Positions 27,998 through 49,717 of a DNA stretch of 64,000 bases are shown piece after piece; within the stretch, counting starts at the first letter, position 1; each line of letters opens with the position of its first letter. The stretch covers positions 132,121 to 196,120 of the forward strand of contig JBAXOB010000002.1 of assembly GCA_037133475.1 (NCBI GenBank), written 5' to 3'. The position numbers were made by a program, and so were the translations under genes. Source of the stretch: Bacteroidota bacterium. GTDB lineage: Bacteria > Bacteroidota > Bacteroidia > Bacteroidales > FEN-979. Under the pieces are notes generated by a model. It was not told where the DNA came from. It was given only the letters and a program-made list of their open reading frames with translations, and ran no database searches.

Positions 27998-28387
27998 ATG
28001 AATATTGAAGAACTCAGGGAATTCTGCCTCAGCCTGCCAGCAGTAACCGAAGATATTAAATGGGAAGAGCACCTGGCATTTTCAGTAGGCGGTAAAATTT
28101 TTTGCCTGACAAACCTTGACCCCCCGTTGAAGGTTGTCATGAAGGTGCCAGAAGATCAGTTTGATGAACTGACGGAGTCGGGGGAGATTATCCAGGCATC
28201 CCATTTTGCCCGAAGGCAATGGATGGCTGTCAACGATGAAAGCCGGTTCAGCCGAACGGAGTGGGAACATTACGTCGCCCAATCCTACAACCTGGTGAAA
28301 TCAAAACTCACCAGGACCGTCAGGAACGGTATTGAAAACCTGCCGGACGGGACAGTCAGGGTAAACAAGCATGATGAAGCAAAATAA
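27998..28387 (+). CDS. MmcQ/YjbR family DNA-binding protein
   Basis: 'MNIEELREFCLSLPAVTEDIKWEEHLAFSVGGKIFC' is the typical YjbR-family N-terminus. The internal ATG of track ORF 27971 was used. Confidence 0.75.
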   Translation: MNIEELREFCLSLPAVTEDIKWEEHLAFSVGGKIFCLTNLDPPLKVVMKVPEDQFDELTESGEIIQASHFARRQWMAVNDESRFSRTEWEHYVAQSYNLVKSKLTRTVRNGIENLPDGTVRVNKHDEAK

Positions 28388-28991
28388 CGTTCACGCGAAC
28401 CAGCCGGTTTCAGCGATCATCCTGGCAGCAGGCAATTCGGTACGCATGGGCAGCCCCAAGGCGCAGCTTCCCTATGGCAACGGGAAAACCTTCGCACAGC
28501 AGGTTACCGGGAATTTCCTTGCCTATGGCTGTAAGCCTGTTATCCTGGTGGTGCAGGAGGGTGTTGATTTCTCCGGACTTCAAACTGAAAATCTTGTCGC
28601 CGTCATTAACCGGGCGGTGGAACGGGGCAGGTCATATTCCATCCATCTCGGTATGCAAGCCCTTCCCGCCGGCGTTAATTGCTTTATCCACAACATTGAT
28701 AATCCCTTCCCCTCAACCGGTTTACTTGACAGGATGTTTGACGCTCTTCCTCCGGATGGTTATACGGTTCCCGTTTACCAGGGCAGGGGCGGGCATCCGA
28801 TCCTGTTGGGAAGTAAAATGATACGAACGTTGCAGGGTCAATCCGAACCAGGGGATTTCCGGCAGGCAATCTCCGGTTTTGCAAGAATTGAGGTTCCCTG
28901 GCTTGATGGGCGCATCCTGTGGAATATCAATACCCCTGAGGAATATCAACGGTTTCTTCTTTCCTCAGGGAATCAGGATAAGCTGGTTTGA
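28371..28991 (+). CDS. mocA: molybdenum cofactor cytidylyltransferase (MocA/YgfJ-type NTP transferase)
   Basis: 206 aa. 'AIILAAGNSVRMGSPKAQLP' MobA-like nucleotidyltransferase N-terminus. Sits next to xdhC and xdh. Confidence 0.78.
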   Translation: MMKQNNVHANQPVSAIILAAGNSVRMGSPKAQLPYGNGKTFAQQVTGNFLAYGCKPVILVVQEGVDFSGLQTENLVAVINRAVERGRSYSIHLGMQALPAGVNCFIHNIDNPFPSTGLLDRMFDALPPDGYTVPVYQGRGGHPILLGSKMIRTLQGQSEPGDFRQAISGFARIEVPWLDGRILWNINTPEEYQRFLLSSGNQDKLV

Positions 28992-29155
28992 GGCACAAAG
29001 ATGCCAGGGTCTTCTCGGGGAATACATTTCATAAATCCATTACAGCAGGGTTTGTTTCAATAAAAATCAACACACACCCTGTTAATACCGGGACTCTGTA
29101 TAAATATTGTAATTTTACATCAGGTTTAACACCGGTATTTCCCAATATTGTCGCT

Positions 29156-29923
29156 ATGGACCATTTTTTTCAAAAAGTCGAAGAGGTTATTTCAGGATCA
29201 ATTCCTGCCGCGCTGTGTATCGTAGTGGAAACCCGTGGTTCCACCCCGCGCAAACAGGGAGCCAGGATGATCGTTTATCCCGACGGGTCGGTTTACGGCA
29301 CGATCGGGGGCGGAAGCGTTGAAAAAGAGGTAACAGACATGGCCCTGAAAATGATCCCTGCCGGACAGCCGGCAAAAGTTTCCTTCAACCTCGAGCAGGA
29401 CCTGGGGATGCATTGCGGGGGAATGATGGAAGTTTACATTGAACCGCTGATCCCCTTGAAAAAGCTGTTCATCTTCGGTGCGGGACATATCGGGAAGTCG
29501 CTGGCCGGGTTTGCCAGGGAGCTGAATTTTTCCGTCACCCTTTTTGACCCGAGGGACGAGATCTTCAGGGATGAAGCTTTCACGGGTTTCACCTGCGTCT
29601 GCGAAGATTTTATAAAGGCTGCCGGGGAGGCGGCTTTCGACGAAAACACCTTTATCGTCATTGTCACGCCAAAACATGTATCCGACGAAGACATCCTTGC
29701 CATTGCGGCCCGCCAACCCCACGCCTACCTGGGGATGATCGGCAGCACCCGGAAGGTGGAGATGCTGAAAAAAAGATTTGTGGCGGAACATATTCTCACG
29801 GAGGAGGAACTTTCGGGTATCGACATGCCGATCGGGATAAAGTTCAACGCTGAGACCCCGGCGGAAATCGCCATCAGCATCCTGGCTAAACTTATCGATG
29901 TGAGAAATACGGTAAAAAAGTGA
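29156..29923 (+). CDS. xdhC: XdhC family molybdenum-hydroxylase maturation factor
   Basis: 255 aa from the internal ATG. 'ALCIVVETRGSTPRKQGARMIV..DGSVYGTIGGGSVE' (XdhC_CoxI) plus a Rossmann-like 'LFIFGAGHIGKSLA' C-domain. The first 56 codons of the track ORF cross an AT-rich intergenic stretch. Confidence 0.85.
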   Translation: MDHFFQKVEEVISGSIPAALCIVVETRGSTPRKQGARMIVYPDGSVYGTIGGGSVEKEVTDMALKMIPAGQPAKVSFNLEQDLGMHCGGMMEVYIEPLIPLKKLFIFGAGHIGKSLAGFARELNFSVTLFDPRDEIFRDEAFTGFTCVCEDFIKAAGEAAFDENTFIVIVTPKHVSDEDILAIAARQPHAYLGMIGSTRKVEMLKKRFVAEHILTEEELSGIDMPIGIKFNAETPAEIAISILAKLIDVRNTVKK

Positions 29924-32900
29924 GCGGAATCCCTCATACCATCCGGTTCGTCCTCGATGATCGCATCATCGAACTTGATTTCCTGGGATCAAACGGGCTG
30001 AAACCAACTACAACGGTTTTGAATTACCTGCGCTCGTTACCCGGCCATAAAGGGACCAAGGAGGGGTGTGCGGAGGGTGACTGCGGCGCCTGCACCGTGG
30101 TGCTGGCCGAGCCGTCGACGGATGGCCGGCTGGATTACCACACGGTCGACAGTTGCCTCGTTTTTCTTCCCATGATCCATGGGAAACAGCTGATCACCGT
30201 TGAGAACCTTGCCCTTCGACGTCAAAACCGGGTTGTGCTGCATCCTGTTCAGCGGCTTATGGTCGAATCAAACGGCAGTCAATGCGGCTTTTGCACACCC
30301 GGGATGGTGATGTCACTTTTCGGCCTGTTTAAAAACCATGACAACCCAAGCCGGGAGATCATCGAAGATGCACTTACAGGCAACCTCTGCCGTTGTACCG
30401 GGTACCAGTCCATTTTAGATGCTGCCGAGCAAACGGCTACCGAAACCCGTTCCGACCAATTCTCGGCCAATGAAGCCCTGATTGCAGGGATGCTTGAATC
30501 GATCAGGGAAAGTCAGCATACGATTGAATTGCGGACGCCGCACCAGACCTGGCTTAAACCTTTTACCCTTGACGAAGCCCTGCGCCTTCGAAGCGAACAT
30601 CCGCTTGCGACCGTGATCAACGGCTCGACCGATGTTGCCCTGCGGCAAACGAAACACCATGAGCTCCTGTCGCTGGTGATAGACCTTTCGGGCGTTGATG
30701 AGCTAAAATACTGCAGGGAGAAGGGTACCCATTTCGTGATCGGCGCCGGCCAGACCATGGAGCAGATTAAATCCTTCGCATCAGAAAAATTACCGGCCCT
30801 TCATAAGATCCTCAGCGTGTTCGGCTCCCTGCAGATCAGGCATGTTGCCACCCTTGGCGGAAACATAGGCTCGGCCTCTCCTATCGGCGATACCCTGCCT
30901 CTACTGATCGCCTTCAGGGCTGAAATCGTACTGCAATCAATGCATTCGGAAAGAGTTATCGGCATCAGCGATTTTATTACAGGCTATCGCAAAACAAGAC
31001 TTGAACCCGGTGAACTGATCACCGCTGTCCGCATTCCAAAACCGGGAGATGACACGCGCATCGAATCCTACAAGATCTCCAAACGCACCGGGCTGGATAT
31101 TTCAACCGTGAGCGCCGCCTTCAGCCTGACTCTCCGCGACGGCATGGTCGCTGAATCCGTACTGGTTTACGGGGGCATGGCGGAAATGCCGAAAAGGGCA
31201 CTGCATACCGAAGCCTTCCTGGCAGGGCGGGAGTGGAATTTCCAGGTCGTCAACCAGGCGATGGCCATCCTGGAAGATGAGTTTACCCCTATTTCCGACG
31301 CCCGGGCGGGAGCCACTTACCGGAAGATTGCCGGGAGCCGCCTGCTGCTCAAATTTTTCACGAACACTTCACCGCTTCACGACCGGGTGACCCGTAGGGC
31401 GGGGAAGACCGGATCCTTATCTGCGGTTGATGATACCTGCGCGAAACATGTCACCGGCGAATCGGTTTTCATCGGCGATATCGAGGGAAACGGGCAACTG
31501 CTCACGGGGAGGGTGGTTTACAGCAAACAGGCCCATGCCGTGCTGAAAAACATCGATATTTCAAAGGCATTGCAGGTTAAAGGGGTTAAAACCATCCTGA
31601 CGGCCAGGGATATTCCCGGTGAAAACCAGATGGGAGCCGTGGTCAGCGACGAACCCTGCCTGGCCGAAAAGGAGGTTTTCTTTATCGGGCAGGCCATCGC
31701 GCTCATTGCAGCGGAGAATGAAGAGGCCGCTGTCGAGGCGGAAAGGCTGATCACCATTGATTACGAACCCCTGCCGGCCATCCTCGATATTGAATCGGCC
31801 ATGGCCGCCAGCAACAGCCTTGCCCCCCAACGGAAAATAGTTCGCGGCAACCCTGATGAAGTCCTGGCCATGGCGCCGCATCTCTTCACCGGCGAATTGA
31901 AAACAGGCGCCCAGGAACACTGGTATCTCGAAACGCAGTCGGCCATGGCAGTACCTGGCGAAGGAAAAGAGATGATGATGCACTCCTCCACCCAGAACCC
32001 GGCTGAAACCCAGGCCATCGTGGCTGAAGTACTCGGCATCTCGAAAAACGAGGTTGAAGTAGAGGTAAAACGCATCGGAGGCGCATTCGGAGGCAAAGAG
32101 ACCCAGGGAAACCATGTGGCTGCCTGGTCGGCACTGCTGGCCAATGCAACACGCCAGCCAGTCAGGATCCAGCTGTGCCGCGATGATGACCAGATCATGA
32201 CCGGCAAACGGCACCGGTTCCTTTCGCGCTACAGCGTGGGGTTTGACGACGAAGGCAGGATCCTCGCTTACAAGGTTGAGCTGAATTCTGATGCGGGCTC
32301 ATCCACCGATTTGTCGAAGGCCATCCTCGAAAGGGCCATGCTGCATGCCGATAATGCCTACTTCCTGCCGCACGTGCAGATAACCGGCCGGGCATGGAAG
32401 ACCAACCTCCCGTCAAATACGGCTTTCCGTGGTTTCGGTGGCCCGCAGGGAATGGCCGTTATTGAAAACGCCATCGACAGGATTGCCCGGTACCTTAAAA
32501 AAGATACCGCCGCCATCCGGCGCCTGAACTTTTACAGGCTTGATGTGTACAATCCGACACCCTACGGCCAGGAGGTGGAAAACAACCATCTCGAACGGAT
32601 GTTTAATGACCTGATGACCTCCTCCGGTTACGAACAGAGAAGAAAAGCCATAGACAAGTTCAATGCTGAAAATCATCTCTATAAAAAGGGGATGGCCCTT
32701 ACCCCGGTTAAATTCGGAATCTCCTTCACCACATCGTTCCTCAACCAGGCCGGGGCCCTGGTCAACATTTATACCGACGGCACGGTGCTGGTTAACCATG
32801 GCGGCACGGAGATGGGACAGGGGCTGCACACCAAAATCGTACAGATCGCCTCCTCGGAACTGGGCATCTCTCCCGGAACTGTAAAAGTGAACGCCACCAA

Positions 32901-33711
32901 CACCTCGAAAGTTCCAAACACATCGCCCACCGCGGCCTCCACAGGCAGTGACCTGAATGGCATGGCGGTGAAAAATGCCATCGATATCCTGAAGGCCAGA
33001 CTTAGCAGGGTGGCGGCAGGTGAATTAACGGATCAATGCCCGGGAAAAATTTTCCTGCCCGAAAACATGGCGTTTGATAATAACCAGGTCTTTGACCGGC
33101 ATGAACCCAACGAAAAAATCGCATTCAGCCGCCTGTGCGACCTTGCCCGCATGCGCCAGGTGAGCCTGAGCAGCACCGGTTATTATAAGACCCCGGGGAT
33201 CTTTTTTGACAGGGAGGCCGGGCAGGGAAACCCTTTCCACTATTTTGCCTTTGGAATGGCGGTATCGGAGGTCATCACCGATACCCTCACAGGGGCCCAT
33301 ACCCTTCTGAGAACCGATATCCTGCATGATGTGGGCGATTCGATCCATGAAGCCATCGACCGTGGCCAGATCGAAGGAGGCTTTATCCAGGGCATGGGCT
33401 GGTGCACAACCGAAGAGATCAAATGGGACCGCAACGGCAACCTGCTGACCCATTCACCCGACACTTACAAAATCCCTGCCATTCTGGATATTCCCCTGGA
33501 TTTCAGGGTTGATCTCCTCAAAGATGCACCCAACCCTGGAACCATCCGCAGGAGCAAAGCCGTTGGAGAACCGCCCTTTATGCTGGGATTGTCGGTATGG
33601 CTTGCTATCAAGGATTCCATTTCAGCCATCGCGAATCATGAGAGGGAACCTGAGTTTTCGCTGCCCGCCACCGGGGAGGTGATCCTGCTTTCAGCAGAAA
33701 AAATAAAATAA
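29920..33711 (+). CDS. xanthine dehydrogenase, single polypeptide ([2Fe-2S] + FAD + molybdopterin domains fused)
   Basis: 1263 aa. 'GCAEGDCGACTV', 'CGFCTPGMVMS', 'NLCRCTGYQSI' (two 2Fe-2S sites). FAD domain 'ATVINGSTDVAL...ATLGGNIGSASPIGD'. Moco domain 'GGAFGGKET', 'FRGFGGPQGM', 'GGTEMGQGLHTK', 'AVGEPPF'. GTG start overlaps the xdhC stop. Confidence 0.9.
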   Translation: MSGIPHTIRFVLDDRIIELDFLGSNGLKPTTTVLNYLRSLPGHKGTKEGCAEGDCGACTVVLAEPSTDGRLDYHTVDSCLVFLPMIHGKQLITVENLALRRQNRVVLHPVQRLMVESNGSQCGFCTPGMVMSLFGLFKNHDNPSREIIEDALTGNLCRCTGYQSILDAAEQTATETRSDQFSANEALIAGMLESIRESQHTIELRTPHQTWLKPFTLDEALRLRSEHPLATVINGSTDVALRQTKHHELLSLVIDLSGVDELKYCREKGTHFVIGAGQTMEQIKSFASEKLPALHKILSVFGSLQIRHVATLGGNIGSASPIGDTLPLLIAFRAEIVLQSMHSERVIGISDFITGYRKTRLEPGELITAVRIPKPGDDTRIESYKISKRTGLDISTVSAAFSLTLRDGMVAESVLVYGGMAEMPKRALHTEAFLAGREWNFQVVNQAMAILEDEFTPISDARAGATYRKIAGSRLLLKFFTNTSPLHDRVTRRAGKTGSLSAVDDTCAKHVTGESVFIGDIEGNGQLLTGRVVYSKQAHAVLKNIDISKALQVKGVKTILTARDIPGENQMGAVVSDEPCLAEKEVFFIGQAIALIAAENEEAAVEAERLITIDYEPLPAILDIESAMAASNSLAPQRKIVRGNPDEVLAMAPHLFTGELKTGAQEHWYLETQSAMAVPGEGKEMMMHSSTQNPAETQAIVAEVLGISKNEVEVEVKRIGGAFGGKETQGNHVAAWSALLANATRQPVRIQLCRDDDQIMTGKRHRFLSRYSVGFDDEGRILAYKVELNSDAGSSTDLSKAILERAMLHADNAYFLPHVQITGRAWKTNLPSNTAFRGFGGPQGMAVIENAIDRIARYLKKDTAAIRRLNFYRLDVYNPTPYGQEVENNHLERMFNDLMTSSGYEQRRKAIDKFNAENHLYKKGMALTPVKFGISFTTSFLNQAGALVNIYTDGTVLVNHGGTEMGQGLHTKIVQIASSELGISPGTVKVNATNTSKVPNTSPTAASTGSDLNGMAVKNAIDILKARLSRVAAGELTDQCPGKIFLPENMAFDNNQVFDRHEPNEKIAFSRLCDLARMRQVSLSSTGYYKTPGIFFDREAGQGNPFHYFAFGMAVSEVITDTLTGAHTLLRTDILHDVGDSIHEAIDRGQIEGGFIQGMGWCTTEEIKWDRNGNLLTHSPDTYKIPAILDIPLDFRVDLLKDAPNPGTIRRSKAVGEPPFMLGLSVWLAIKDSISAIANHEREPEFSLPATGEVILLSAEKIK

Positions 33712-33795: not shown

Positions 33796-34989
33796 ATGAA
33801 AGATATCTTACTAAAGATCAACGAACTTGCAACGAGATACGAAGAAAGCACCGCCAATAACCTCTCCAGGCTGGTGAAGATCAAATCGCTCAGCACTGCC
33901 GAAAAAGCCGTGGCACTGGAGCTGAAGCGCCAGATGGAGGAAGCCGGCTTTGATGAAGTCAGGATTGACGGGTTGGGAAATGTAATCGGCAGGATCGGGA
34001 ACGGGAAGAAGATCCTGGCCTTTGATGGCCATATCGACACCGTTGACACCGGCAACCTGGCCAACTGGAGCAGCGATCCCTTTTCGGGTGAGATCAAGGA
34101 GGGCTTTGTTCATGGCCGGGGAACCGTTGACCAGAAAGGCGGCCCGGCGGCATTTGTCACCGCAGGGCGCATCCTTAAGGAACTTGCCTTCGACCGCGAC
34201 CTGACGATATACTTCACCGGGACCGTCATCGAAGAGGATTGCGACGGGTTATGCTGGAAATACCTGGTGGAGGTAGAGAAGATCATCCCCGATTTCGTGG
34301 TGATCACCGAACCCACGAACCTCAACATTTACCGCGGCCACCGTGGCAGGATGGAGATCTCCGTGACCTTTACGGGCATCTCCTCGCACGGCTCCGCGCC
34401 CGAACGTGGCAAAAACGCGATCTACATGGCCTCGCGGGCATGCCTTGAGGTGGAAAAGCTGAATGAACGCCTCAAATCCGACGATTTCCTCGGCAAGGGC
34501 AGCGTGACCATCTCGGAATTCGTTTCGGGAAGTCCCTCCCTGTGCGCCGTAGCCGATTATGCCCGGATTCATCTCGACAGGCGGCTTACCTGGGGCGAAA
34601 CCAAAGAATCGGCGGTGGCCGAGATCATGGAGATCGTAAAGGATACGGATGCCAGGGTCGAAGTGCTGCAATATGAAGAAACGACTTACACAGGCCTGCG
34701 TTACGGCATGGAGAAATACTATCCCACCTGGAAAATCGAGGAGGATCATCACCTGGTGGTGCGCGCACAGGAGGCCTTTGCCGGGCTCTTCGACAGGGAA
34801 CCTCTTACCGATAAATGGACCTTCTCGACCAACGGTGTCACCATCAATGGCTATTATAAGATCCCGTGCATCGGGTTCGGCCCCGGCGACGAGGTGCTGG
34901 CCCATGCCCCCAACGAAAAGGTGCCGGTGGGCGACCTGGTCACCGCCTCGGCCTTTTACGCCGCACTGGCCTTTTACCTGTCGGAATAA
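33796..34989 (+). CDS. ygeY: YgeY family selenium-metabolism-linked M20 hydrolase
   Basis: 397 aa, near-collinear with my recollection of E. coli YgeY ('GTVIEEDCDGLCWKY', 'YRGHRGRMEI', 'SSHGSAPERGKNAI', 'RRLTWGET', 'KWTFSTNGV', 'GFGPGDEVLAHAPNEK'). Confidence 0.9.
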   Translation: MKDILLKINELATRYEESTANNLSRLVKIKSLSTAEKAVALELKRQMEEAGFDEVRIDGLGNVIGRIGNGKKILAFDGHIDTVDTGNLANWSSDPFSGEIKEGFVHGRGTVDQKGGPAAFVTAGRILKELAFDRDLTIYFTGTVIEEDCDGLCWKYLVEVEKIIPDFVVITEPTNLNIYRGHRGRMEISVTFTGISSHGSAPERGKNAIYMASRACLEVEKLNERLKSDDFLGKGSVTISEFVSGSPSLCAVADYARIHLDRRLTWGETKESAVAEIMEIVKDTDARVEVLQYEETTYTGLRYGMEKYYPTWKIEEDHHLVVRAQEAFAGLFDREPLTDKWTFSTNGVTINGYYKIPCIGFGPGDEVLAHAPNEKVPVGDLVTASAFYAALAFYLSE

Positions 34990-34994
34990 TCAAC

Positions 34995-35495
34995 TTGAAA
35001 ACAGTACTTTTTATACTCACCCAGGTTTTCTGGTTATCTGGTTTCTGCCAGACAGGCACGATCACGGGTGAGGTAACATCCAGGATACATGGCCGGTACG
35101 AAGTGCTGCAATTTGCCCTGGTCCGTCTGGAAAATACGAATTTCCACGCCAATTCCGCCTACGGGGGACGGTACGTGCTTGACAGCATTCCGGCCGGCGA
35201 TTATGAAATAAGCGCCAGCTATGTGCAGCGTGAAACCATCTATAAACGGGTTAAAGTTGTCAGTGATTCTGTTATTGATATGAATTTTGAATTTACCTGT
35301 CAGTACGACCGTCACGAAAAAGACAGCATCTTCCCGGTATGCTTCAGATCAGACAGGGTGGTGCGTGTAAAATACGGGATGATGATCGTCCCGTACGGGA
35401 ATAAGGCGGATACTACCTGTTTTTGGGGAGGCACCGACCAGATTCCTTTATGTCATCCCTACTGGTATTGTAAACGGGATAAACTTGAATTTTAA
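34995..35495 (+). CDS. small secreted carboxypeptidase-regulatory-like domain protein with Cys-rich tail (TTG start)
   Basis: 166 aa if it starts at TTG 34995, giving 'MKTVLFILTQVFWLSGFC' (signal peptide). 'GTITGEV...NSAYGGRYVLDSIPAGDYEISASY' is a CarboxypepD_reg-like fold. The track ORF start 34866 would overlap ygeY by 124 nt. Confidence 0.5.
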   Translation: MKTVLFILTQVFWLSGFCQTGTITGEVTSRIHGRYEVLQFALVRLENTNFHANSAYGGRYVLDSIPAGDYEISASYVQRETIYKRVKVVSDSVIDMNFEFTCQYDRHEKDSIFPVCFRSDRVVRVKYGMMIVPYGNKADTTCFWGGTDQIPLCHPYWYCKRDKLEF

Positions 35496-36704: not shown

Positions 36705-36705
36705 T

Positions 36706-39351: not shown

Positions 39352-39364
39352 GTGAGAAATTTAA

Positions 39365-39822
39365 AACTATTTTTACTCCAACATTACCGGGCGTAAGTAC
39401 CTGGCGTTATTCAAGGGGCTGCATTTTGAGACCGAAAAATGGAACCGTTTATTCCAGCTTCCCCTCGATTCGGTCATTGACCATTATTCCTCCGGGATGA
39501 ATAAGAAGCTTGCCTTCATGGGCGTACTAAAGCAAAATAAGCCGGTCATGATCCCTTTAACGGCCTCGACATTGAAACCTGCAGGATCATCCGCCAGATC
39601 CTGTTAATACTGAAAGACCAGGATAAAACCATCATCATCACATCGCATATCATCGAAACCCTGACAAACCTCTGCGATCTGATTCATTACCTGCAAATGG
39701 GAAAAATATTGTTTACCAAAAATAAAAGTGAGTTTGCAGAGTTCGAAAAAACGATCTTTGCATCGACCGAACATAAAAATGAGAATATCATCAACGAACT
39801 GACAAACAACATATTAAAGTAG
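39365..39822 (+). pseudogene. ABC transporter ATP-binding protein relic (5'-truncated, Walker B deleted, frameshifted)
   Basis: Frame 2 reads '...ITGRKYLALFKGLHFETEKWNRLFQLPLDSVIDHYSSGMNKKLAFMGVLKQNKPVMI'. It then switches frame at 39553 to 'PFNGLDIETCRIIRQILLILKDQDKTIIITSHIIETLTNLCDLIHYLQMGKILF...ILK*'. There is no Walker A, and the LDE of Walker B is missing. Confidence 0.75.
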
Positions 39823-39842
39823 AACGTTTTTTTTGGCAAGAA

Positions 39843-39947
39843 TAACCACAATGACACAAAGAATGCACAATGACACAATGGGAAATTTTAATGATGCATC
39901 CCAAAAACTGTTGTGCTGTTGTTTATTTACTTTGTGCAAAGGTGGTA
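39843..39947. repeat. imperfect palindromic CACAA-rich intergenic element (copy B)
   Basis: The left arm taaccacaatgacacaaagaatgcacaatgacacaatgg matches the reverse complement of the right arm, taccacctttgcacaaagtaaataaacaacagcacaacag. Confidence 0.6.
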
Positions 39948-40017
39948 CAAGATATATATCGCATCTGTAAAAAAAAACAGGATCAACTAATTATGAATAA
40001 ACTAAATAAGAATAACC

Positions 40018-40197
40018 ATGGAATTAACCGACCAGATTTTAACCGTAATTGAGAAAGCCGGTGCCCCGGTGACAGCCGGGCAGATTGTTGAGTTATCGGG
40101 AATCGACCGCAAGGAGGTTGACAAGGCGATGAAAAAGCTGAAAACCACCGGGAGGATCACCTCGCCGAAGAACTGTTACTGGGAAGCTGCCAAATAG
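40018..40197 (+). CDS. small winged-helix DNA-binding protein (59 aa, below the ORF-track cutoff)
   Basis: '[59 protein letters not shown]'. Helix-turn-helix-wing pattern (ligand name / EIA-like helix / KxVxKxLKxLxxxGxI / SPxxCxW). GC-normal codon usage inside an AT-rich spacer. Confidence 0.55.
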
Positions 40198-40202
40198 CAG
40201 GG

Positions 40203-42890: not shown

Positions 42891-44188
42891 GAGCGGCTGA
42901 TTTTTTGTTTGTTCAGAAAGTCGTCTACAGCGCGGCGATCTGTTCCGACCGGCTCCGGTATGGAAATAGATGACTGTACCGCCTCCAGGTCTTTCAGCCC
43001 GCTGCCGGTCAGCAACACCACGTTGGAGGATCCTGCCGGGATCAGGCCCAGCCTGCGGTATTTTTCCATACCGGCATATGCCGCGGCGGCGGCGGGCTCG
43101 CAGAAAATTCCTGCCGACCGGGCCACCTGCAGCGAGGCGGCTAATATCTCCCCATCCGAAACCGCAATGGTCTCCCCGTCATATTTGCTGATATAGCCTG
43201 CTGTCATATGAAAACAACGCGGAACATCCACCGATATCGAATCGGCGACGGTTTTCGATGCAACCGGCACAAAGGGCCGGCCAAGGTTGTCAATCAGGTT
43301 GCTGCTTCCTTCCGACTGAACGGCAACCGCGACCGGCATCCTGTCGATGATCCCCAGCATTAAAAGGTCTTCAAATCCCTTGCAGACAGCCGAGTAGATG
43401 ACCCCGTCGCCAACCGGGATGAAGATCCGGTCGGGAACCTGATAACCAAGCTGTTGATAAAGTTCAAACGCTACTGTTTTCTTTCCTTCGATGGTCAGTG
43501 GGTTATAAGCAGTGTTGCGGTTGTACCATCCATGTCTCGCCGTAATCTCCACGCTCGTGTCAAAGGCATCGTCGTAGGTTCCTTTGACCGGAACCAGTAT
43601 GGCTCCATACATCAGGATCTGGGTGAGTTTTGCAAGGGGAGCTGCGGCAGGCACCACGATGACCGACTCCTGTCCCTGCGATGCGCATATCCCGGCCAGG
43701 GAGGAACCAGCATTGCCTGTAGAGGCGGTGATGAGCGTATGGATGTTGTTTTCGCGGGCCCAGGCGGATACAAGCGCCGATGCCCGGTCCTTGAAGGAAA
43801 AGGTGGGATTCTGCGAATCATCCTTTAAAAACAGTTTGAAACCTGCCTTACTATTTTCAACCTGCAAATTTCCTGATACGACAGGAGCCTCAGGGGCCCG
43901 GCCATCCAACCGGTACAGGGGCGTATTCCCGACCTCCAGCCTGGGCCACGAATCCATCGCATGCAAAGGCAATAGCGGGAGGAACCGTTCACCCTGAAGC
44001 CTGTCGAAAAGGCCTGAAACGGGATGCATGTCCCGCATCTTTTGATATGGGTAAAGGGTTTTTAAAACTCCCCGTGGCGGGAATCCGGGCTGGTTGGCGG
44101 CTCCGCATACCGGGCACAGGTAGATGACCTGGTCGCCCGCGTACTCAGCGTGGCAATCGACACACGCGAAGTGATACTTATCGGTCAT
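42887..44188 (-). CDS. threonine-synthase-like PLP (fold type II) enzyme with N-terminal CxxC...CxxC zinc ribbon
   Basis: 433 aa. 'FACVDCHAEY...YLCPVCG', PLP-lysine motif 'NPTFSFKDRASALVS', 'ITASTGNAGSSLA', 'LLTGSGLKD'. Confidence 0.78.
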   Translation of the reverse strand: MTDKYHFACVDCHAEYAGDQVIYLCPVCGAANQPGFPPRGVLKTLYPYQKMRDMHPVSGLFDRLQGERFLPLLPLHAMDSWPRLEVGNTPLYRLDGRAPEAPVVSGNLQVENSKAGFKLFLKDDSQNPTFSFKDRASALVSAWARENNIHTLITASTGNAGSSLAGICASQGQESVIVVPAAAPLAKLTQILMYGAILVPVKGTYDDAFDTSVEITARHGWYNRNTAYNPLTIEGKKTVAFELYQQLGYQVPDRIFIPVGDGVIYSAVCKGFEDLLMLGIIDRMPVAVAVQSEGSSNLIDNLGRPFVPVASKTVADSISVDVPRCFHMTAGYISKYDGETIAVSDGEILAASLQVARSAGIFCEPAAAAAYAGMEKYRRLGLIPAGSSNVVLLTGSGLKDLEAVQSSISIPEPVGTDRRAVDDFLNKQKISRS

Positions 44189-44224: not shown

Positions 44225-45697
44225 CTAAGTTAACAGCCCTGTACGGGCATTGAAATCATTGATCAGTTCATCCCACCGTGCCGGCTGGCTGAATATCTCG
44301 GCCCAGATATGACGGTCGTCCCATAACTGGCGGAGATCCTCAACCTCCTTGCCCTGCTGTTCAATCCAGGTAAAATATTTCAGGTTATGGATGGCTTTCC
44401 GGTCGACATAACCAAGCTCCTTCATAAAGGCCGGGGCAGTCCCGAACATACATTTTTCATGATCACGGGCAGCCTGCAACGGGGAATAATTTCCGCGCGC
44501 AGCCGTAAGTTCCTCCAGTCTCGATCCGTACATCTGCGCCGAATCGGTGGCAATGGTCACGATGACATCCTCATTCGTGTAATCAAAGTATTTGGCCGTC
44601 TTGATGGCCGAGAGGACATTCCCGATACCGGAGATGCCGATCATGCCGAGTTTTGAGATCAACTCCCTGTCAACACCGCTGGTTGCCAGGTATTGATGAC
44701 CCTCCTTCTCGTTGAACAGGCGCAAAAGGCGCATGCAGTCTTCATCGTCGATGGCGGTAACCACATCGGTATTCCTGACATTATGGATCCAGGGCACATG
44801 TTTGTCGCCGATGCCCTCGATGCGATGGGCCCCAAAGCCATTCTGCAGCAGCGTCGGGCATTGCAGGGCCTCTGATGCCACCACCTTGAGACGGGGGAAT
44901 TTCGTTTTCAGGTAGTCGCCGGCGGCAATGGTTCCGGCCGAACCGGTGGCGGAAACATAGGCTGAAAGAGTTGCATCCTCTCCCCCCGCAATCCTGAAGG
45001 CCTCTTCAATAGCATGGCCTGTAACCTCATAGTGCCAGCATGAATTTCCAAACTCCTCAAACTGGTTAAAGATGATACAATCCTTGCGTGTGCGGCGGAT
45101 TTCCCAGCATTTGTCGTAAATTTCCTTGACATTCGACTCGCATCCGGGTGTGGCGATCACCTCCGCGCCGATCTCCTTCAGCCACTCGAACCTTTCGCGG
45201 CTCATCTCCTCCGGCAAAATGGCCACGGCCGTGACATCCATGAGGAACGAATCGAAGGCGCCACCGCGGCAATAGTTCCCTGTAGAGGGCCATACGGCTT
45301 TATGATATGTGGGGTCGAAACCTCCCGTGATGATGCGCGGGGCAAGGCAGCCGTAAGCGGCACCTACCTTGTGCGCCCCCGTGGGGAACCATTTCCCGAG
45401 CAGCACCAGGATCCGGGCGTCAACCCCGGTCAGTGATTTCGGCAGTTCGATAAAATTAGGTCCGCCAAAAAGACCGCCGGTGGATGTTTGCTCATTTTTC
45501 CAGGTAAGGCGGAATAAATTAAGGGGATGGAGTTCCCATAATCCGATGTTTTTCAGCTTATCCAGGATTTTTCCCGGGATCAGCTCCGGGTTCTGCATCT
45601 GGGCGAAAGTTGGCAGGATTATTCCCCGCGAACGGTAATGGGTGATCGCTTTCTCTAAAACGGCGGGGTCGGTGATGTGGTTGATAATGGGGATCAT
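44225..45697 (-). CDS. uncharacterised PLP-dependent (cysteine-synthase/Trp-synthase-beta-like fold) enzyme with N- and C-terminal extensions
   Basis: 490 aa. 'GKWFPTGAHKVGAAY' (candidate PLP-Lys), 'WPSTGNYCRGGAF', 'SATGSAGTIAAG', 'HRIEGIGDKHVPWI'. About 100 aa N-terminal and about 90 aa C-terminal to the core have no motif I recognise. Confidence 0.7.
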   Translation of the reverse strand: MIPIINHITDPAVLEKAITHYRSRGIILPTFAQMQNPELIPGKILDKLKNIGLWELHPLNLFRLTWKNEQTSTGGLFGGPNFIELPKSLTGVDARILVLLGKWFPTGAHKVGAAYGCLAPRIITGGFDPTYHKAVWPSTGNYCRGGAFDSFLMDVTAVAILPEEMSRERFEWLKEIGAEVIATPGCESNVKEIYDKCWEIRRTRKDCIIFNQFEEFGNSCWHYEVTGHAIEEAFRIAGGEDATLSAYVSATGSAGTIAAGDYLKTKFPRLKVVASEALQCPTLLQNGFGAHRIEGIGDKHVPWIHNVRNTDVVTAIDDEDCMRLLRLFNEKEGHQYLATSGVDRELISKLGMIGISGIGNVLSAIKTAKYFDYTNEDVIVTIATDSAQMYGSRLEELTAARGNYSPLQAARDHEKCMFGTAPAFMKELGYVDRKAIHNLKYFTWIEQQGKEVEDLRQLWDDRHIWAEIFSQPARWDELINDFNARTGLLT

Positions 45698-45745: not shown

Positions 45746-48700
45746 TTATCCTTTATAACCTGCCAGCTTCATTTGCATGGCGCCCTTCAGGACAATGCTC
45801 ATCCAGGCTGCAAAGGAAAAGCGTGCCTCCCGCACGCAGGGGGCCAGCAACTTCACCTCCAGGATGGTAAAATCATCGGGCCGGATGACAGCCCTGACCT
45901 GGTTTGTTTCGTAAATATAGTTCCCCCCGGTTAGGGTCAGGGTACGGACGTTTTCTTTTTCCTTATAGATCAGCACATCCCTGTCGGCCTGACTGCTCAG
46001 GAGAAACCCTGTTTGCTCCTCATTCAGCGATTTCACCGAAAGGCAGAGTCCGGGTTTATCGAGGAAGGGCCTGCCGGCCGAGGGACAAAAGGTGGTACAG
46101 TTTCCGCATTCATTGCAGAGGTCACGGATATTCATTACCTGGTATGGCTGGTCAACATGGAATTCAATGTCCTCAACGATGCTTACGGTGCCCTTTTCAT
46201 CCGCCACTGCCTTTTGAAGGGAATAGCATACCGGTTCGACGGAGTAGCTGAAATTGGCCAGGTTAGGGCAAACCGAAACACAAACGTTGCATATTTCATC
46301 GCACTGCAGGCACCTCGAAGCCTCCTGCCGCGCCCCGGCGGCACCCAGCGGGGCAACCACCACATCGAAATTACGACTTTCGCCGGGTGTGATCTCCCCG
46401 GGATGGCACCCATATTCCCGAATCGATTTGCGGTGCAGCAACCCGGGAATATCTTTAACCCGTCCCGGCATACCCTCACGGGTTGCCTGGGGTGGCCTTT
46501 GTTGCAGAATCCCTGCGATCATCTCCAGGGCGGCTTTCCGCCCGTCGGCGATGGCATTGATGGCGGTTGACGCTCCCCTGAGGGCATCGCCACCGATATA
46601 TAACCCGTCCACACGGGTCTTGTAATGCCCGGGTTCAGTCTTTAGATTCTCAGGGGTGACAAAATCGATGGCCAGTTTCTGCCCAATGGCAGGGATGACC
46701 GTATCGCAAGGGATTTCGAATTCAGAACCGGGAATGGCAACGGCTCCCCGACGGCCGGACTTATCGTTCATGGCAAGAACATTGTGCAGGCAGACAATTG
46801 CCGTGACTTTTCCGTTTTCTCCTTTAACCCTGACCGGGGTCGTAAGCTCCATGACCGTGATGCCTTCACGCAGCACCGCCTCGATTTCTCCGCGGTCGGC
46901 GGGCATCTCGCGTAACGTGCGCCGGTAAACGATGGTGACACTGCCCAGCTCGCCGACCAGCCTGAAGGCTGTTCGTGCGGCATCCATGGCGGTGTTCCCG
47001 CCACCGATGATAACAACATGGTTGCCGGGTTTATGGCGATGGTCCTTTTTCACCTGGAACAGGAATTCGAGGGGATCGATGACCCCTGCTAATCCGGATC
47101 CTTCAATATCAATTTTCACCGATTCCTGTGCGCCGGCAGCAAGGAATACCGATGTGTAATTTTTCAGGATCTCCCCGAATTTTTCCTTGTCAATTTGATT
47201 ACGGTCATGCAGTTGAATGCCCGAATCAAGAATCCTGCCGATGTCGGTTTTGGTAGCCTCCGCGGTTAGCCTGAAAGAGGGAATGGCGGCAGAGATCATT
47301 CCCCCGGCAAGGTTTTTCTGTTCGAATATATCCACCTCAAAGCCTCCCTGGTGTAGAAACCATGCACAGGACAACCCGGCAGGGCCGGCGCCGATCACCG
47401 CCATTTTACCGGCCTGTTTTCCGGCAGGGAGGGGCTGACCGGGTACGGCAGATTCGGCCACGAACCTTTTGACCTCCCTGATTGCCACTGCCTCATCGTA
47501 GTTGATGCGGGTACATTTCAGCTGGCAGAGATGGTCGCAAACCATGCCGGTCACCGAAGGGAAGGGATTGGTGCGTAAAATGGTTTCAAGTGCGGCCGGG
47601 ATATCACCCTGTGCCGTATGATACAGGTACTCCGGGATCTCCTGGCTGGCAGGGCAGGTGTCGGTACAGGGGGCATGAATACAATCAAACCAGCCCAGGG
47701 GCAGGGTGGTTTTTATATCAGGGTCGAGGAGAAGCTGTTTTTGATAACGGGGATTGCCGGAAACCTGGTCGGCATACCGGTTCAGGTTTGCCAATGTCGC
47801 CATTGACAGGGAATTTCCCGGCATGTCCGAAAATCCCGCAACATGCCTGATAAAGCTTTCGGTGTTGCCGGCCTGTGCGGCCGAAAAGCCCTTCCGCAGG
47901 TTATCGATATACTGATGCAACCGGCCATAACCGCCAGGTTTCAGCAGGTCGCTGCAAACGGTTACCGGTTTCAGGCCGCAGGCAATCACGTCGGCAATAT
48001 TGAAACAATCGGCTCCTCCCGAAAAGGAGATGTCGAGTGTGCCCGCCCTGTCGTTCTGGAGTTTGCGGGCGAGGTTGATGCTGATCGGGTGCAGGGCGCG
48101 GCCGCTCATGTACATCATGCTTTCCGACGGACCGAAAACAGTTTTGTGGTTGACGCTCTCGAGGGTATTGGTAAGTTTCACCCCAAACTGAAGCCCCTCG
48201 CCTGCCGCGGTGGCGGTGAGACTATCCAGGATATGCAGGGCATCGGGATAGGTAAGGTCATGTTCAAAGGCAAGGTCGGGAACTTCCGTGATAAAGCCCA
48301 ATTTCCTGTTCAGCAGTTCCCGCAACTCTTTGCTGCCAAGCAGGGTCGGGTTCAGCTTCACGGTTGTGTGCAGCTTTTCTTCCCTGATAAGGTAGCTGGC
48401 TATCTTTTCGATCTCCTCCGGCGGACAGCCGTGCATGGTGCTGAGGGTGACGTGATCCGATATCAATGCGGGGATATGGACCGAATCTATCGCAGGGTAA
48501 ACCTCCCGGATCGCGTTTTTCGCATGGATCAGCTCTCCGGAGCAGTCGCGCATCCTGCTCAGGAACCACCGGACTTTTTCACTTTTTATGCCTTCCAGGT
48601 TATACCCCACACTCATATTGAAGAGGGTTCCCGGCTCACCTTTGAATCCCAACTCTTTATGCAAAATATGGAGGATGATCCAGCCATTCAGGTATTCGCT

Positions 48701-49060
48701 GAATGACTCCCTGATGGTGAGTTCCTGCGACCATTCGCAGTTATATCCCTCATCCTGCATGTCGATACAGGGTTTGGAAACGTCGAGTTCGTCAAGAACC
48801 TGGATGGTCTTCAGTTCTATATACCGCGCCCCGCAAAGCCAGGCAGCCACAATGTTGAGGGCCATCTGTGAATGGGGACCTGCAGCAACCCCGATGGGAG
48901 CAGCCAGCAATCGCCCGTAACGTGCCGACCTGAAAGGATCCTGAAGATCAGGATGAAAGAAGAGACTTCCCGGGATTCCCATAAACCGGTCATGCCTGAT
49001 TTCGTCAAGGGTGAATCGTAAAAGAGCGGGTAATGGAACAGGGAACAGTTTACCTGACAC
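45746..49060 (-). CDS. ygfK: YgfK-type Fe-S/flavin oxidoreductase (DHOD/DPD-like TIM barrel + GltD-like FAD/NAD(P) domains + 4Fe-4S ferredoxin)
   Basis: 1104 aa. The N-terminus 'LFPVPLPALLRFTLDEIRHDRFMGIPGSLFF' parallels E. coli YgfK. 'MAVIGAGPAGLSCAWFL', 'VVIIGGGNTAMDAART', 'CLQCDEICNVCVSVCPN', 'CNECGNCTTFCP'. GTG start. Confidence 0.88.
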   Translation of the reverse strand: MSGKLFPVPLPALLRFTLDEIRHDRFMGIPGSLFFHPDLQDPFRSARYGRLLAAPIGVAAGPHSQMALNIVAAWLCGARYIELKTIQVLDELDVSKPCIDMQDEGYNCEWSQELTIRESFSEYLNGWIILHILHKELGFKGEPGTLFNMSVGYNLEGIKSEKVRWFLSRMRDCSGELIHAKNAIREVYPAIDSVHIPALISDHVTLSTMHGCPPEEIEKIASYLIREEKLHTTVKLNPTLLGSKELRELLNRKLGFITEVPDLAFEHDLTYPDALHILDSLTATAAGEGLQFGVKLTNTLESVNHKTVFGPSESMMYMSGRALHPISINLARKLQNDRAGTLDISFSGGADCFNIADVIACGLKPVTVCSDLLKPGGYGRLHQYIDNLRKGFSAAQAGNTESFIRHVAGFSDMPGNSLSMATLANLNRYADQVSGNPRYQKQLLLDPDIKTTLPLGWFDCIHAPCTDTCPASQEIPEYLYHTAQGDIPAALETILRTNPFPSVTGMVCDHLCQLKCTRINYDEAVAIREVKRFVAESAVPGQPLPAGKQAGKMAVIGAGPAGLSCAWFLHQGGFEVDIFEQKNLAGGMISAAIPSFRLTAEATKTDIGRILDSGIQLHDRNQIDKEKFGEILKNYTSVFLAAGAQESVKIDIEGSGLAGVIDPLEFLFQVKKDHRHKPGNHVVIIGGGNTAMDAARTAFRLVGELGSVTIVYRRTLREMPADRGEIEAVLREGITVMELTTPVRVKGENGKVTAIVCLHNVLAMNDKSGRRGAVAIPGSEFEIPCDTVIPAIGQKLAIDFVTPENLKTEPGHYKTRVDGLYIGGDALRGASTAINAIADGRKAALEMIAGILQQRPPQATREGMPGRVKDIPGLLHRKSIREYGCHPGEITPGESRNFDVVVAPLGAAGARQEASRCLQCDEICNVCVSVCPNLANFSYSVEPVCYSLQKAVADEKGTVSIVEDIEFHVDQPYQVMNIRDLCNECGNCTTFCPSAGRPFLDKPGLCLSVKSLNEEQTGFLLSSQADRDVLIYKEKENVRTLTLTGGNYIYETNQVRAVIRPDDFTILEVKLLAPCVREARFSFAAWMSIVLKGAMQMKLAGYKG

Positions 49061-49091
49061 AGGCTATCGGATTTTAGTGAATTGAGCGTGT

Positions 49092-49099
49092 CAAAATTA
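49092..49099 (-). promoter_or_regulatory. -7 promoter box (taattttg on minus strand) for the ygfK operon
   Basis: TAnnTTTG match 31 nt upstream of the ygfK GTG (49060). Confidence 0.4.
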
Positions 49100-49243
49100 T
49101 AGATAAACCCTGAGAGTTGACGGGATTTGGGTGAAAAAAGGGCCGATTCACCCGGGAAATGTATTTTGCGTTGTTTTCCCTGTTAATTTTGTCAACTTGC
49201 GCAACCCCGTCAGAGTATCCTTGAAGATAAACAGGAACCCAAT

Positions 49244-49717
49244 ATGGAAATGACAGAATCGATGATGAATGAGGCTTTCGATGCAGCATTTCATTCAGTC
49301 AGGAATAATATTGGCGGCCCCTTCGGCGCCGTAGTCATGCTGGATGGCAAAATCATCGGCAAAGGAGGCAACAGGGTAAGTTCACAAAACGACCCTACCG
49401 CCCATGCCGAAATCGTTGCCATCCGCGATGCATGCACGAAAATAAACAGCTTCGACCTTTCCGGCGCCGTGATCTATTCAACCTGCGAACCCTGTCCGAT
49501 GTGCCTTTCAGCCATATACTGGGCCAATATCCGGTCGGTGTTTTATGTATCAACCCGCTACCAGGCTGAAGCCATCGGGTTTAAGGATAACCATATTTAT
49601 GAAGAGCTGAACCTCCCGCCTGCTGAACGCAGGATCGACTTTATCCAGGTAAGCCATCCCAAAGGAGCCGAGCTCTTCAGCGAATGGACCGAAAAAAACG
49701 ACAGGATTCCCTACTGA
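49244..49717 (+). CDS. guaD: guanine deaminase, cytidine-deaminase fold (B. subtilis GuaD type)
   Basis: 157 aa. 'GGPFGAVV', 'NDPTAHAEIVAIRDAC', 'YSTCEPCPMCLSAIYWA' closely track remembered B. subtilis GuaD. Confidence 0.85.
   Translation: MEMTESMMNEAFDAAFHSVRNNIGGPFGAVVMLDGKIIGKGGNRVSSQNDPTAHAEIVAIRDACTKINSFDLSGAVIYSTCEPCPMCLSAIYWANIRSVFYVSTRYQAEAIGFKDNHIYEELNLPPAERRIDFIQVSHPKGAELFSEWTEKNDRIPY

Follow-up and report, generated by a model that had tools for sequence, protein, structure and literature searches.

The 64 kb stretch of DNA analysed here (the window) belongs to a metagenome-assembled genome (MAG) of an uncultured Bacteroidota bacterium, and the gene cluster under study occupies its positions 28371-49717, about 21 kb. 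The genes of this cluster are predicted to encode, in all probability, the anaerobic reductive urate (2,8-dioxopurine) pathway with a set of purine feeder enzymes and a variant ending. The NCBI protein records of the cluster proteins (MEI6681372-76) carry the label 'MAG: Bacteroidota bacterium', from a contig of 212 kb. Genes were called by combining a listing of the open reading frames (ORFs) with family scans (Pfam and NCBIfam/TIGRFAM), and bit scores are given below against the curated cut-offs of the models. For comparison with E. coli K-12, proteins of NC_000913.3 were searched on the window by tblastn and identities were taken from BLASTP; in the flanks the family scans covered ORFs of at least 150 amino acids judged to be likely genes.

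The ORF listing and the family scans divide the cluster into three main transcription blocks. The plus strand block contains, in this order, a YjbR-like ORF, a mocA-like gene, xdhC, a fused xanthine dehydrogenase (XDH) gene, ygeY, an ORF with a CarboxypepD_reg domain and ygeW. The first minus strand block is composed of the hydantoinase and SsnA-like genes and converges on ygeW, and the second is an operon with the order ygfK, a 490 amino acid pyridoxal-phosphate (PLP) enzyme, a 433 amino acid PLP enzyme and an 895 amino acid molybdenum hydroxylase. The guanine deaminase gene, on the plus strand, is divergent from ygfK. Start-stop overlaps of 4 nt join mocA to xdhC, xdhC to the XDH gene, and the stop of the 433 amino acid (ThrC-like) gene to the start of the hydroxylase gene. 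The original prediction, made from the sequence before this analysis, had placed the outer borders of the cluster exactly, from the start of the mocA-like gene at 28371 to the end of the deaminase gene at 49717. All ten genes which it named are present, while the two PLP genes, which take up 2.8 kb between the hydroxylase gene and ygfK, the CarboxypepD_reg ORF and a spacer of 0.88 kb had been omitted from its list. Its reading of the region as a purine/urate cluster of the ygeW/ygfK/ssnA type is borne out by family matches above the cut-offs for YgeW, YgeY, the hydantoinase and YgfK.

The anaerobic urate pathway was reconstituted in vitro in 2025 by Liu et al. (10.1101/2025.04.24.650524) and Li et al. 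(10.1101/2025.05.19.654654; PMC12507026), so that the earlier statement that most of its steps are biochemically unassigned is out of date. Urate is reduced to 2,8-dioxopurine by XdhD-YgfM in E. coli or by XdhAC in C. sporogenes; the hydroxylase of the cluster is a urate reductase and not a xanthine hydroxylase. YgfK, the NADPH:2,8-dioxopurine oxidoreductase (DOPOR), reduces the 2,8-dioxopurine next, followed by SsnA and by HyuA, which gives 2,3-diureidopropionate. YgeW frees one ureido group as carbamoyl phosphate, which YqeA turns into ATP, YgeY removes the other ureido group, and YgeX converts 2,3-diaminopropionate to pyruvate and ammonia (10.1101/2025.04.24.650524; PMC12507026). The XdhAC of C. 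sporogenes is a FeS-Mo enzyme requiring SelD. In 6 of 39 strains carbamate kinase is missing or its gene lies at another genomic site, a precedent for a cluster that does not include it (10.1101/2025.04.24.650524).

The canonical genes for ring opening and removal of the ureido groups are found on both strands. The M20 hydrolase YgeY (33796-34989, plus strand) scores 520 bits with NF009555 (cut-off 321) and is 51% identical to its E. coli counterpart, and the knotted carbamoyltransferase YgeW (35523-36704, plus strand) scores 677 with NF005538 (cut-off 453) and is 69% identical to E. coli YgeW. The HyuA-type hydantoinase (36706-38049, minus strand) scores 457 with TIGR02033 (cut-off 393), with 38% identity to E. 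coli HyuA. Next to it lies the gene of a divergent SsnA-like aminohydrolase (38055-39326, minus strand), for which two SsnA models are the best matches at 351 and 309 bits, against cut-offs of 444 and 455 respectively. The next family reaches only 88 bits, and the protein is 30% identical to E. coli SsnA over its full length; its name from the NCBI annotation pipeline (PGAP) is 'amidohydrolase family protein'. YgfK (1104 amino acids; 45746-49060, minus strand) scores 842 with TIGR03315 (cut-off 835) and is 36% identical to E. coli YgfK over 1068 amino acids.

The 895 amino acid molybdenum hydroxylase (40203-42890, minus strand) has a 2Fe-2S and a molybdenum part and no FAD domain. It scores 847 bits with TIGR03311 (cut-off 830), 447 with the aldehyde oxidoreductase model (cut-off 1100) and 330 with that of the 4-hydroxybenzoyl-CoA reductase alpha subunit (cut-off 995). 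This agrees with its initial placement with the selenium-type hydroxylases; a placement with either of the other two families, named by the original prediction as refuting, did not come about. The description as a molybdenum enzyme of the E. coli type did not hold: identity is 25% to XdhD and 29% to XdhA of E. coli, and the FAD-less FeS-Mo architecture is that of clostridial XdhAC. In the window and in more than thirty related loci the gene is part of the ygfK operon and next to ssnA, which makes its product the hydroxylase that travels with these two genes. Because a conventional XdhAB in the same cluster already passes the equivalog cut-offs, the 895 amino acid enzyme is probably the urate reductase (2,8-dioxopurine dehydrogenase), and XdhAB and the guanine deaminase would therefore be feeders.

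The name of the protein points elsewhere. TIGR03311 is entitled 'selenium-dependent xanthine dehydrogenase', PGAP uses the same name, and the active-site motifs (GGGFGGRE, AMRGFG and GIGEIG, with residue roles which we assume from bovine xanthine oxidoreductase) resemble those of xanthine-oxidising enzymes. C. sporogenes, moreover, has both a selenium-dependent XDH and the urate reductase DOPDH (10.1101/2025.04.24.650524). The 895 amino acid protein could in the same way be a second XDH, dependent on selenium, in which case some other enzyme would be needed before ring opening. We consider this unlikely given the conventional XdhAB already in the cluster and the constant position of the gene with ygfK and ssnA; besides, the C. 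sporogenes XdhAC, which has the same FeS-Mo architecture, proved to be a urate reductase despite its name (10.1101/2025.04.24.650524).

As to selenium itself, the urate cluster of the published strains always co-occurs with YqeB, YqeC and SelD (10.1101/2025.04.24.650524). Searches of the window and of about 100 related loci detected neither yqeB nor yqeC, the YqeB query matching the XdhC-family gene only, and no selD-family match was obtained among the window ORFs put through the family scans, as had been foreseen for selD; SelD, YqeB and YqeC were also not among the recurrent neighbours of the related loci that had at first no assignment. A selenium dependence of the 895 amino acid enzyme would have as its sole support the name of the model passed.

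The distribution of the cluster was followed with a genome scan seeded with the 490 amino acid (CysK-like) PLP enzyme, which returned 80 loci at 61-87% identity, and with a second set of loci retrieved from metagenomes with the SsnA of the window; the loci are numbered L001 onwards, and co-occurrence was counted from tblastn and ORF clustering. Hosts of the first set are Bacteroidales, Lentimicrobiaceae, Prolixibacteraceae, Rikenellaceae, Aminicenantes, Calditrichia and SAR324, further Spirochaetota, Elusimicrobiota, Planctomycetota, Verrucomicrobiota, Clostridia and others. The genes found beside the CysK-like gene are those for YgfK (44 loci), the ThrC-like enzyme (44), the molybdenum hydroxylase (43), SsnA (33), YgeW (17), YgeY (16) and HyuA (14). 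The order YgfK, CysK-like, ThrC-like, hydroxylase, SsnA and, where present, HyuA is that of the window in more than thirty Bacteroidales loci, and the same block is seen in the SsnA-seeded metagenome loci where the sequence suffices (L082, L086, L087 and L090). Altogether the gene order of the window is repeated in more than 40 independent assemblies, a recurrence far beyond chance. The CysK-like gene is also found inside urate operons of Spirochaetota (L059, L062), Clostridia (L057, L060), Aminicenantes (L047) and Planctomycetota (L077) and in L071, and an operon of SAR324 (L053) carries ArcC, YgeW, YgeY, YgeX and the CysK-like enzyme. Outside the Bacteroidales the ThrC-like gene is often directly upstream of the CysK-like gene (L064, L069, L077, L080), so that conservation of the pair extends to both possible orders.

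The ThrC-like enzyme (433 amino acids; 42887-44188, minus strand) is a fold-type II PLP enzyme (PF00291, 219 bits) with an N-terminal CxxC...CxxC zinc ribbon. The window has no YgeX orthologue, as had been noted at the outset, but the two PLP enzymes had then been overlooked, and one of them may fill the role. The YgeX model NF006058 gives the 433 amino acid protein 43.5 bits against a cut-off of 276, and searches of the window with the YgeX of E. coli and those of five related loci hit nothing but the ThrC-like gene, with 26-30% identity over 77-155 amino acids. True YgeX (406 bits against 276 with NF006058, 36-42% identical to E. coli YgeX) is present in five of the related loci, always without a ThrC-like gene, and the two occur together in none of about 84. 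In L031 and L067 ygeX directly follows the CysK-like gene, in the slot of the ThrC-like gene, and in L067 it also directly precedes the hydroxylase gene. Counting was restricted to the 61 loci with at least 1.5 kb of sequence on both sides of the CysK-like gene: a ThrC-like gene lies within 600 bp in 35, ygeX within 600 bp in 3, one of the two further away in 6, neither in 17 and both in none. Its position and this mutual exclusion suggest, tentatively and with slightly less than even confidence, that the ThrC-like enzyme is a non-orthologous substitute for the diaminopropionate ammonia-lyase YgeX.

Annotations of the MAGs name members of both PLP families 'pyridoxal-phosphate dependent enzyme', 'threonine synthase' or 'cysteine synthase', and the nearest solved structures to the two proteins are in fact ThrC (E about 1e-45 for the 433 amino acid protein) and CysK. 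The threonine synthase model TIGR00260 misses its cut-off only narrowly (162.7 against 167.1). That the two genes are an ordinary threonine synthase and an ordinary cysteine synthase, lodged in the cluster with no role in purine degradation, is nevertheless hardly credible. The 433 amino acid protein stays under all threonine synthase cut-offs, with PRK08197 at 193 against 303, and the 490 amino acid protein scores 109 against 351 with the cysK model. At the positions of T88, R160 and N188 (T. thermophilus numbering), which we take to be phosphate-binding although a literature check gave no confirmation, both aligned solved threonine synthases keep T, R and N, while the ThrC-like members have A in 40 of 40, T in 38 of 40 and D in 40 of 40, respectively. 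Both genes are conserved within urate operons across phyla, YgeX and the ThrC-like gene swap, and the ThrC-like gene overlaps that of the hydroxylase.

The CysK-like enzyme (490 amino acids; 44225-45697, minus strand) is likewise of fold-type II and scores 42 against 394 with the cysM model, in addition to the cysK value given above. Its N-terminal extension of about 75 amino acids and helical C-terminal extension of about 150 distinguish it from the usual CysK/CysM proteins of about 300-320 amino acids; identity to plant and bacterial CysK is in the mid-20s per cent, and the PLP lysine, the asparagine (STGN) loop and the phosphate loop are intact. The AlphaFold2 model is poor (pLDDT 65.5 from an alignment of 23 sequences), and Foldseek against the PDB with this model returned only CysK and cystathionine beta-synthase (CBS) folds at TM scores of about 0.4-0.57, with no information on the extensions. 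Beta-substituted alanines are the substrates of all the structural relatives (CysK, beta-cyanoalanine synthase, S-methylcysteine synthase and H2S-forming enzymes), which catalyse either a replacement or an elimination at the beta position. We regard it as rather likely that the CysK-like enzyme is a member of the lower urate pathway and the partner of the ThrC-like enzyme or YgeX. Among the compounds of the pathway, its substrate could be one with a free alpha-amino group, either 2,3-diaminopropionate or 2-amino-3-ureidopropionate, the latter an intermediate in the scheme of Li et al. (PMC12507026). The 2,3-diaminopropionate would be the D isomer, because Liu et al. give its precursors the (R) configuration. 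Possible reactions are those of a D-specific lyase, a racemase, a beta-replacement or the release of urea from the ureido intermediate.

Homologues with 43-44% identity and the same architecture are encoded on plasmids of Rhizobium sp. NXC24 (L100) and Bosea vaviloviae (L101), near an M20 peptidase and a TauE/SafE 'sulfite exporter'; L100 has in addition an amino-acid ABC transporter and L101 a RidA protein and a thiamine pyrophosphate enzyme. The RidA of Bosea fits a lyase releasing an enamine, and the plasmid contexts hint at a beta-elimination role on another beta-substituted alanine.

These homologues, together with the synthases and lyases of beta-substituted alanines among its relatives, also speak for a stronger assignment, in which the CysK-like enzyme itself would end the pathway as a lyase that yields pyruvate, ammonia and a leaving group, and the ThrC-like enzyme or YgeX would do something different or be redundant, acting for example on the other enantiomer. 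It is the CysK-like gene that stays constant within the pair, and in L047, L057 and L060, where no YgeX or ThrC-like gene is in range, its place is between SsnA and HyuA. Those three loci are, on the other hand, short or split clusters, the co-occurrence with bona fide YgeX in 5 loci would leave one of the two enzymes redundant, and E. coli and C. sporogenes run the pathway with no CysK-like enzyme (10.1101/2025.04.24.650524; PMC12507026). The assignment as terminal lyase seems to us rather improbable.

Far less probable is a role of the CysK-like enzyme in cofactor maturation, in which it would draw on cysteine or selenocysteine to deliver the sulfide or selenide of the Mo=S or Mo=Se ligand and so take the place of YqeB, YqeC and SelD. 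H2S-producing desulfhydrases do exist among enzymes of the CysK fold, the gene often adjoins ygfK and the hydroxylase gene, and yqeB and yqeC were not detected in the window and the roughly 100 related loci. Known sulfuration of the molybdenum cofactor is performed by NifS-like enzymes of fold-type I, however, and L053 and L076 have the CysK-like gene with ArcC and YgeW (L053 also with YgeY and YgeX) and no molybdenum enzyme within 10 kb; the gene also occurs alone, next to housekeeping genes.

The feeder part of the cluster begins with two maturation genes. The MocA-like molybdenum-cofactor nucleotidyltransferase (28371-28991, plus strand) has TIGR03310 as its best NCBIfam match (92.5 bits against a cut-off of 186), is 26% identical to E. 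coli MocA and is present in 11 related loci. The XdhC-family chaperone for insertion and maturation of the molybdenum cofactor (28988-29923, plus strand) scores 205 bits with NF045664 and 143 with TIGR02964, both under the cut-offs. An identification of this gene as yqeB was rejected, the listed NCBIfam matches being two XdhC-family models with no YqeB-specific model; the protein is 33% identical to part of E. coli YqeB because of the shared XdhC/CoxI fold.

The xanthine dehydrogenase (29920-33711, plus strand) is a protein of 1263 amino acids in which XdhA (2Fe-2S and FAD) and XdhB (Mo) are fused. Residues 24-482 score 528 bits with the XdhA equivalog TIGR02963 (cut-off 467) and residues 504-1263 score 983 with the XdhB equivalog TIGR02965 (cut-off 849), so that the claim of a cluster joined to a conventional FAD-containing XDH stands. 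The domain order is that of eukaryotic XDH. Among the loci compared the fusion is found only here and in the close relative L082; L087, L090 and L056 have a pair of neighbouring genes for the two halves, each in its own frame. An assembly artefact was considered for the fusion and rejected, since L082 is an independent metagenome contig carrying the same fusion.

The guanine deaminase (157 amino acids; 49244-49717, plus strand) has the cytidine deaminase (CDA) fold, as predicted, matching B. subtilis GuaD (1WKQ/1TIY) over residues 5-150 with E = 8e-42 for 1WKQ. It has the HAE and PCxxC zinc motifs and a terminal RIPY, with the C-terminal tyrosine which we assume to have a role in deaminases of this fold. 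The gene is divergent from ygfK also in L002, L003, L007, L011 and L087.

Put together, the gene identities, their order and their conservation are what is observed in this work, and the chemistry of the canonical steps is that of the two 2025 papers. Guanine would be deaminated to xanthine by the CDA-fold deaminase, and hypoxanthine and xanthine would be oxidised to urate by the fused FAD-containing XdhA-XdhB, matured with the help of XdhC and the MocA-like protein. The 895 amino acid FeS-Mo enzyme would convert urate to 2,8-dioxopurine, which YgfK would reduce; the six-membered ring of the product would be opened by the SsnA-like hydrolase and the hydantoin ring by HyuA, giving 2,3-diureidopropionate. 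Phosphorolysis of one ureido group by YgeW would yield carbamoyl phosphate, and YgeY would take off the second one to leave 2,3-diaminopropionate. Here the ThrC-like enzyme would act in place of the absent YgeX to give pyruvate and ammonia. Its CysK-like partner would act on an alpha-amino, beta-substituted C3 intermediate, be it D- or L-diaminopropionate or 2-amino-3-ureidopropionate, by beta-elimination, beta-replacement or stereo-inversion.

Several observations weigh against this scheme. The SsnA-like, MocA-like and XdhC proteins score under their curated cut-offs, carbamate kinase, a purine permease, selD, yqeB and yqeC were not found in the window, and the 895 amino acid protein is named a xanthine dehydrogenase by NCBI. 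The ThrC-like family does not have D120 and D189 (E. coli numbering), which are common to all YgeX homologues compared, and the exclusion statistic of the ThrC-like gene and ygeX (hypergeometric p about 0.01) ignores the shared ancestry of the loci. The CysK-like family is also found alone beside housekeeping genes in loci of Elusimicrobiota, Planctomycetota and Verrucomicrobiota and may therefore have a general role; the neighbours of the stand-alone genes in Elusimicrobiota and Planctomycetota (LepA, a poly(A) polymerase-family protein, D-Tyr-tRNA deacylase and a CpXC protein) are uninformative.

The tblastn searches with E. coli K-12 proteins found no YgeX orthologue, YqeA, YqeC, XanQ, GhxQ, UacT or amidohydrolase-type GuaD in the 64 kb window; YqeB matched the XdhC-family gene only, and YgfM gave a weak match to the FAD domain of the fused XDH. 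This agrees with the absences stated in the original prediction for the window, those of ygeX, yqeA, ygfM, yqeB, yqeC and a purine permease. ArcC, YgeX, APC-transporter and Lrp seeds from related loci likewise identified no orthologue in the window, and neither a sigma-54 regulator nor permeases were found in it.

Some smaller elements surround the pathway genes. The YjbR-family protein (27971-28387, plus strand; PF04237, 62.9 bits) overlaps the start of the mocA-like gene by 17 nt and is found beside mocA in L082 with 84% identity and in no other locus; it is possibly co-transcribed with the cluster, of which its membership is uncertain. The CarboxypepD_reg-domain small protein with a signal-peptide-like N terminus (about 35000-35495, inside the ORF 34866-35495, plus strand) lies between ygeY and ygeW, a gap of about 540 bp in L082, similar to the window, and of about 60 bp in L002 and others. 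The stop codons of ygeW and the hydantoinase gene, on opposite strands, are one base apart (36704/36706), with no room for a terminator in between. The AT-rich spacer between ssnA and the hydroxylase gene (39327-40202, 0.88 kb) separates the two minus strand transcription units and contains on the plus strand an ORF of 59 amino acids (40018-40197) with a helix-turn-helix match below the cut-off (HTH_11, E = 9e-4). L082 conserves this ORF at 93%, and a gene is called for it on the Logan contig L001; the more distant loci gave no match, and its product may be a small regulator. The spacer gave no promoter or terminator signal over the shuffled background in a scan whose coverage does not extend to Bacteroidota promoters. 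Rfam detected no purine, xanthine or other riboswitch, either at the gathering threshold over the whole window or at E <= 0.1 over 28-50 kb, and no tRNAs were found in the window.

In related loci the junctions between these genes are sites of insertion, with an IS200/IS605 transposase between the two PLP genes (L003:11587-12033) and a Bro-N domain protein or other ORFs between the hydroxylase gene and ssnA (L014, L015, e.g. L015:15455-16282, and L007). Ten Bacteroidales loci (L016, L017, L021, L023, L024, L029, L037, L049, L058 and L075) have a divergent gene for an Lrp/AsnC regulator just upstream of that for the CysK-like enzyme. The window has no counterpart of this regulator, whose placement suggests amino-acid-responsive control of the PLP-hydroxylase-ssnA operon. 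Directly after ssnA, seven Bacteroidales loci (L013-L017, L075 and L091, e.g. L016:17101-17742) carry a gene for a protein of 207-226 amino acids, absent from the window, which matches nothing in Pfam or NCBIfam; in those loci that have hyuA, it comes before that gene. This may be a further accessory protein of the pathway. Locus L071, from another Bacteroidota MAG (JBBRUI010000022.1, 1478-14331), is a compact operon on one strand with the order ThrC-like, SsnA, a short YgfK (664 amino acids), hydroxylase, YgeW, CysK-like, YgeY, carbamate kinase and an aspartate carbamoyltransferase fragment, in which no hyuA was detected. The recurrent neighbours which could be identified are, besides the Lrp/AsnC regulator, IS200 transposase and Bro-N protein, an XdhA small subunit, an APC-family transporter, IlvB, IlvD, a YgfK fragment and an aldehyde dehydrogenase.

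The flanks of the cluster encode proteins sorted by the type IX secretion system, a TonB-dependent receptor with FecR and an extracytoplasmic function sigma factor, and tetratricopeptide repeat and SPFH proteins; the family scans of the likely ORFs recognised nothing related to purines. A set resembling leucine/isovalerate catabolism, unrelated to purines, is found at 9254-16891 and comprises a carboxyltransferase, an enoyl-CoA hydratase, a biotin carboxylase with a biotin-carrier domain, two HMGL-like proteins and an acyl-CoA dehydrogenase.

The cluster type as such is already known, and the variant ending with its PLP pair is the new part. The SsnA network of Li et al. comprises six phyla, Bacteroidota not among them (PMC12507026), the screen of gut isolates by Liu et al. 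in 2022 described urate use as 'notably absent in Bacteroidetes' (10.1101/2022.07.24.501321), and the supplements of the 2025 preprint of Liu et al. (10.1101/2025.04.24.650524) have no Bacteroidota entries as text. One likely reason for the absence of the phylum is that the SsnA described here scores under the family threshold. No published report of a Bacteroidota host of the urate cluster was found, and neither such a host nor the replacement of YgeX by a ThrC-like enzyme, nor the widespread CysK-like enzyme, is in the two pathway papers or the earlier screen. Details specific to the lineage are the XdhA-XdhB fusion and, in close relatives, the CDA-type guanine deaminase next to ygfK.

The pathway has been worked out as recently as 2025 and for no organisms other than E. 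coli and Clostridia, and it is being engineered into probiotics for gout. The CysK-like module is found in loci of Bacteroidota, Spirochaetota, Planctomycetota, Bacillota, Aminicenantes and SAR324. The arguments are evenly balanced, in our view, for the broader proposal that the eight-enzyme pathway is incomplete for much of the anaerobic environment, with the highly conserved CysK-like enzyme as an extra step or branch at the level of diaminopropionate, paired with YgeX or a ThrC-like lyase, and that environmental Bacteroidales are purine degraders. Should the ThrC-like enzyme be a diaminopropionate lyase, this would be a fresh enzyme activity, and should the CysK-like enzyme belong to the pathway, the current scheme would miss a reaction, perhaps a stereochemical step or a urea-releasing shortcut. 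Under the broader proposal, members of a phylum scored as non-uricolytic in gut screens would be anaerobic purine degraders in the environment, taking part in purine mineralisation in anoxic lake, sediment and groundwater habitats. Surveys by marker genes under-count degraders, as the SsnA of this cluster is under the cut-offs, and score any PF00291 protein as 'YgeX'. The PLP pair marks a concrete gap in a pathway that now attracts interest from medicine and ecology, and substrates suited to both enzymes were already used in the 2025 papers.

Reportedly, Haft and Self described in 2008 a selenium-dependent molybdenum hydroxylase neighbourhood, with the model set TIGR03309-03316. The models for Se_dep_XDH (TIGR03311), Se_ygfK, ygeW and YgeY are passed, and Se_ssnA is the best match of its protein but remains under the cut-off. 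The cluster resembles that neighbourhood in these matches and differs from it in that neither YqeB nor YqeC turned up in the window and the related loci and selD had no family match among the scanned window ORFs. The XDH part resembles the XdhAB plus XdhC systems of the Rhodobacter/Pseudomonas type, as both equivalog models are passed and an XdhC-family gene lies directly upstream, the difference being the fusion of the subunits in one chain. The deaminase corresponds to B. subtilis GuaD (1WKQ) in its full-length match, zinc and catalytic motifs and C-terminal tyrosine, whereas the E. coli cluster has an unrelated GuaD of the amidohydrolase type.

With the clusters of C. sporogenes and E. coli the locus shares YgfK, HyuA, YgeW and YgeY, with an SsnA-like aminohydrolase, beside a molybdenum hydroxylase, and with C. 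sporogenes also a fused FeS-Mo hydroxylase with no FAD subunit and a cluster that does not contain carbamate kinase. It differs in having no YgeX, two extra fold-type II PLP enzymes, a divergent SsnA and a hydroxylase of low identity to E. coli XdhD, in YgfM, YqeA, YqeB, YqeC, a sigma-54 regulator and permeases not being in the window, and in its host phylum. The C. difficile variant, in which UacX replaces YgfK and UacY replaces YgeW and YqeA (PMC12507026), is a precedent for the non-orthologous replacement of single steps in this cluster. Here, in contrast, the upper and middle steps are canonical, and it is the terminal PLP step which would be replaced, with an extra enzyme present beside it.

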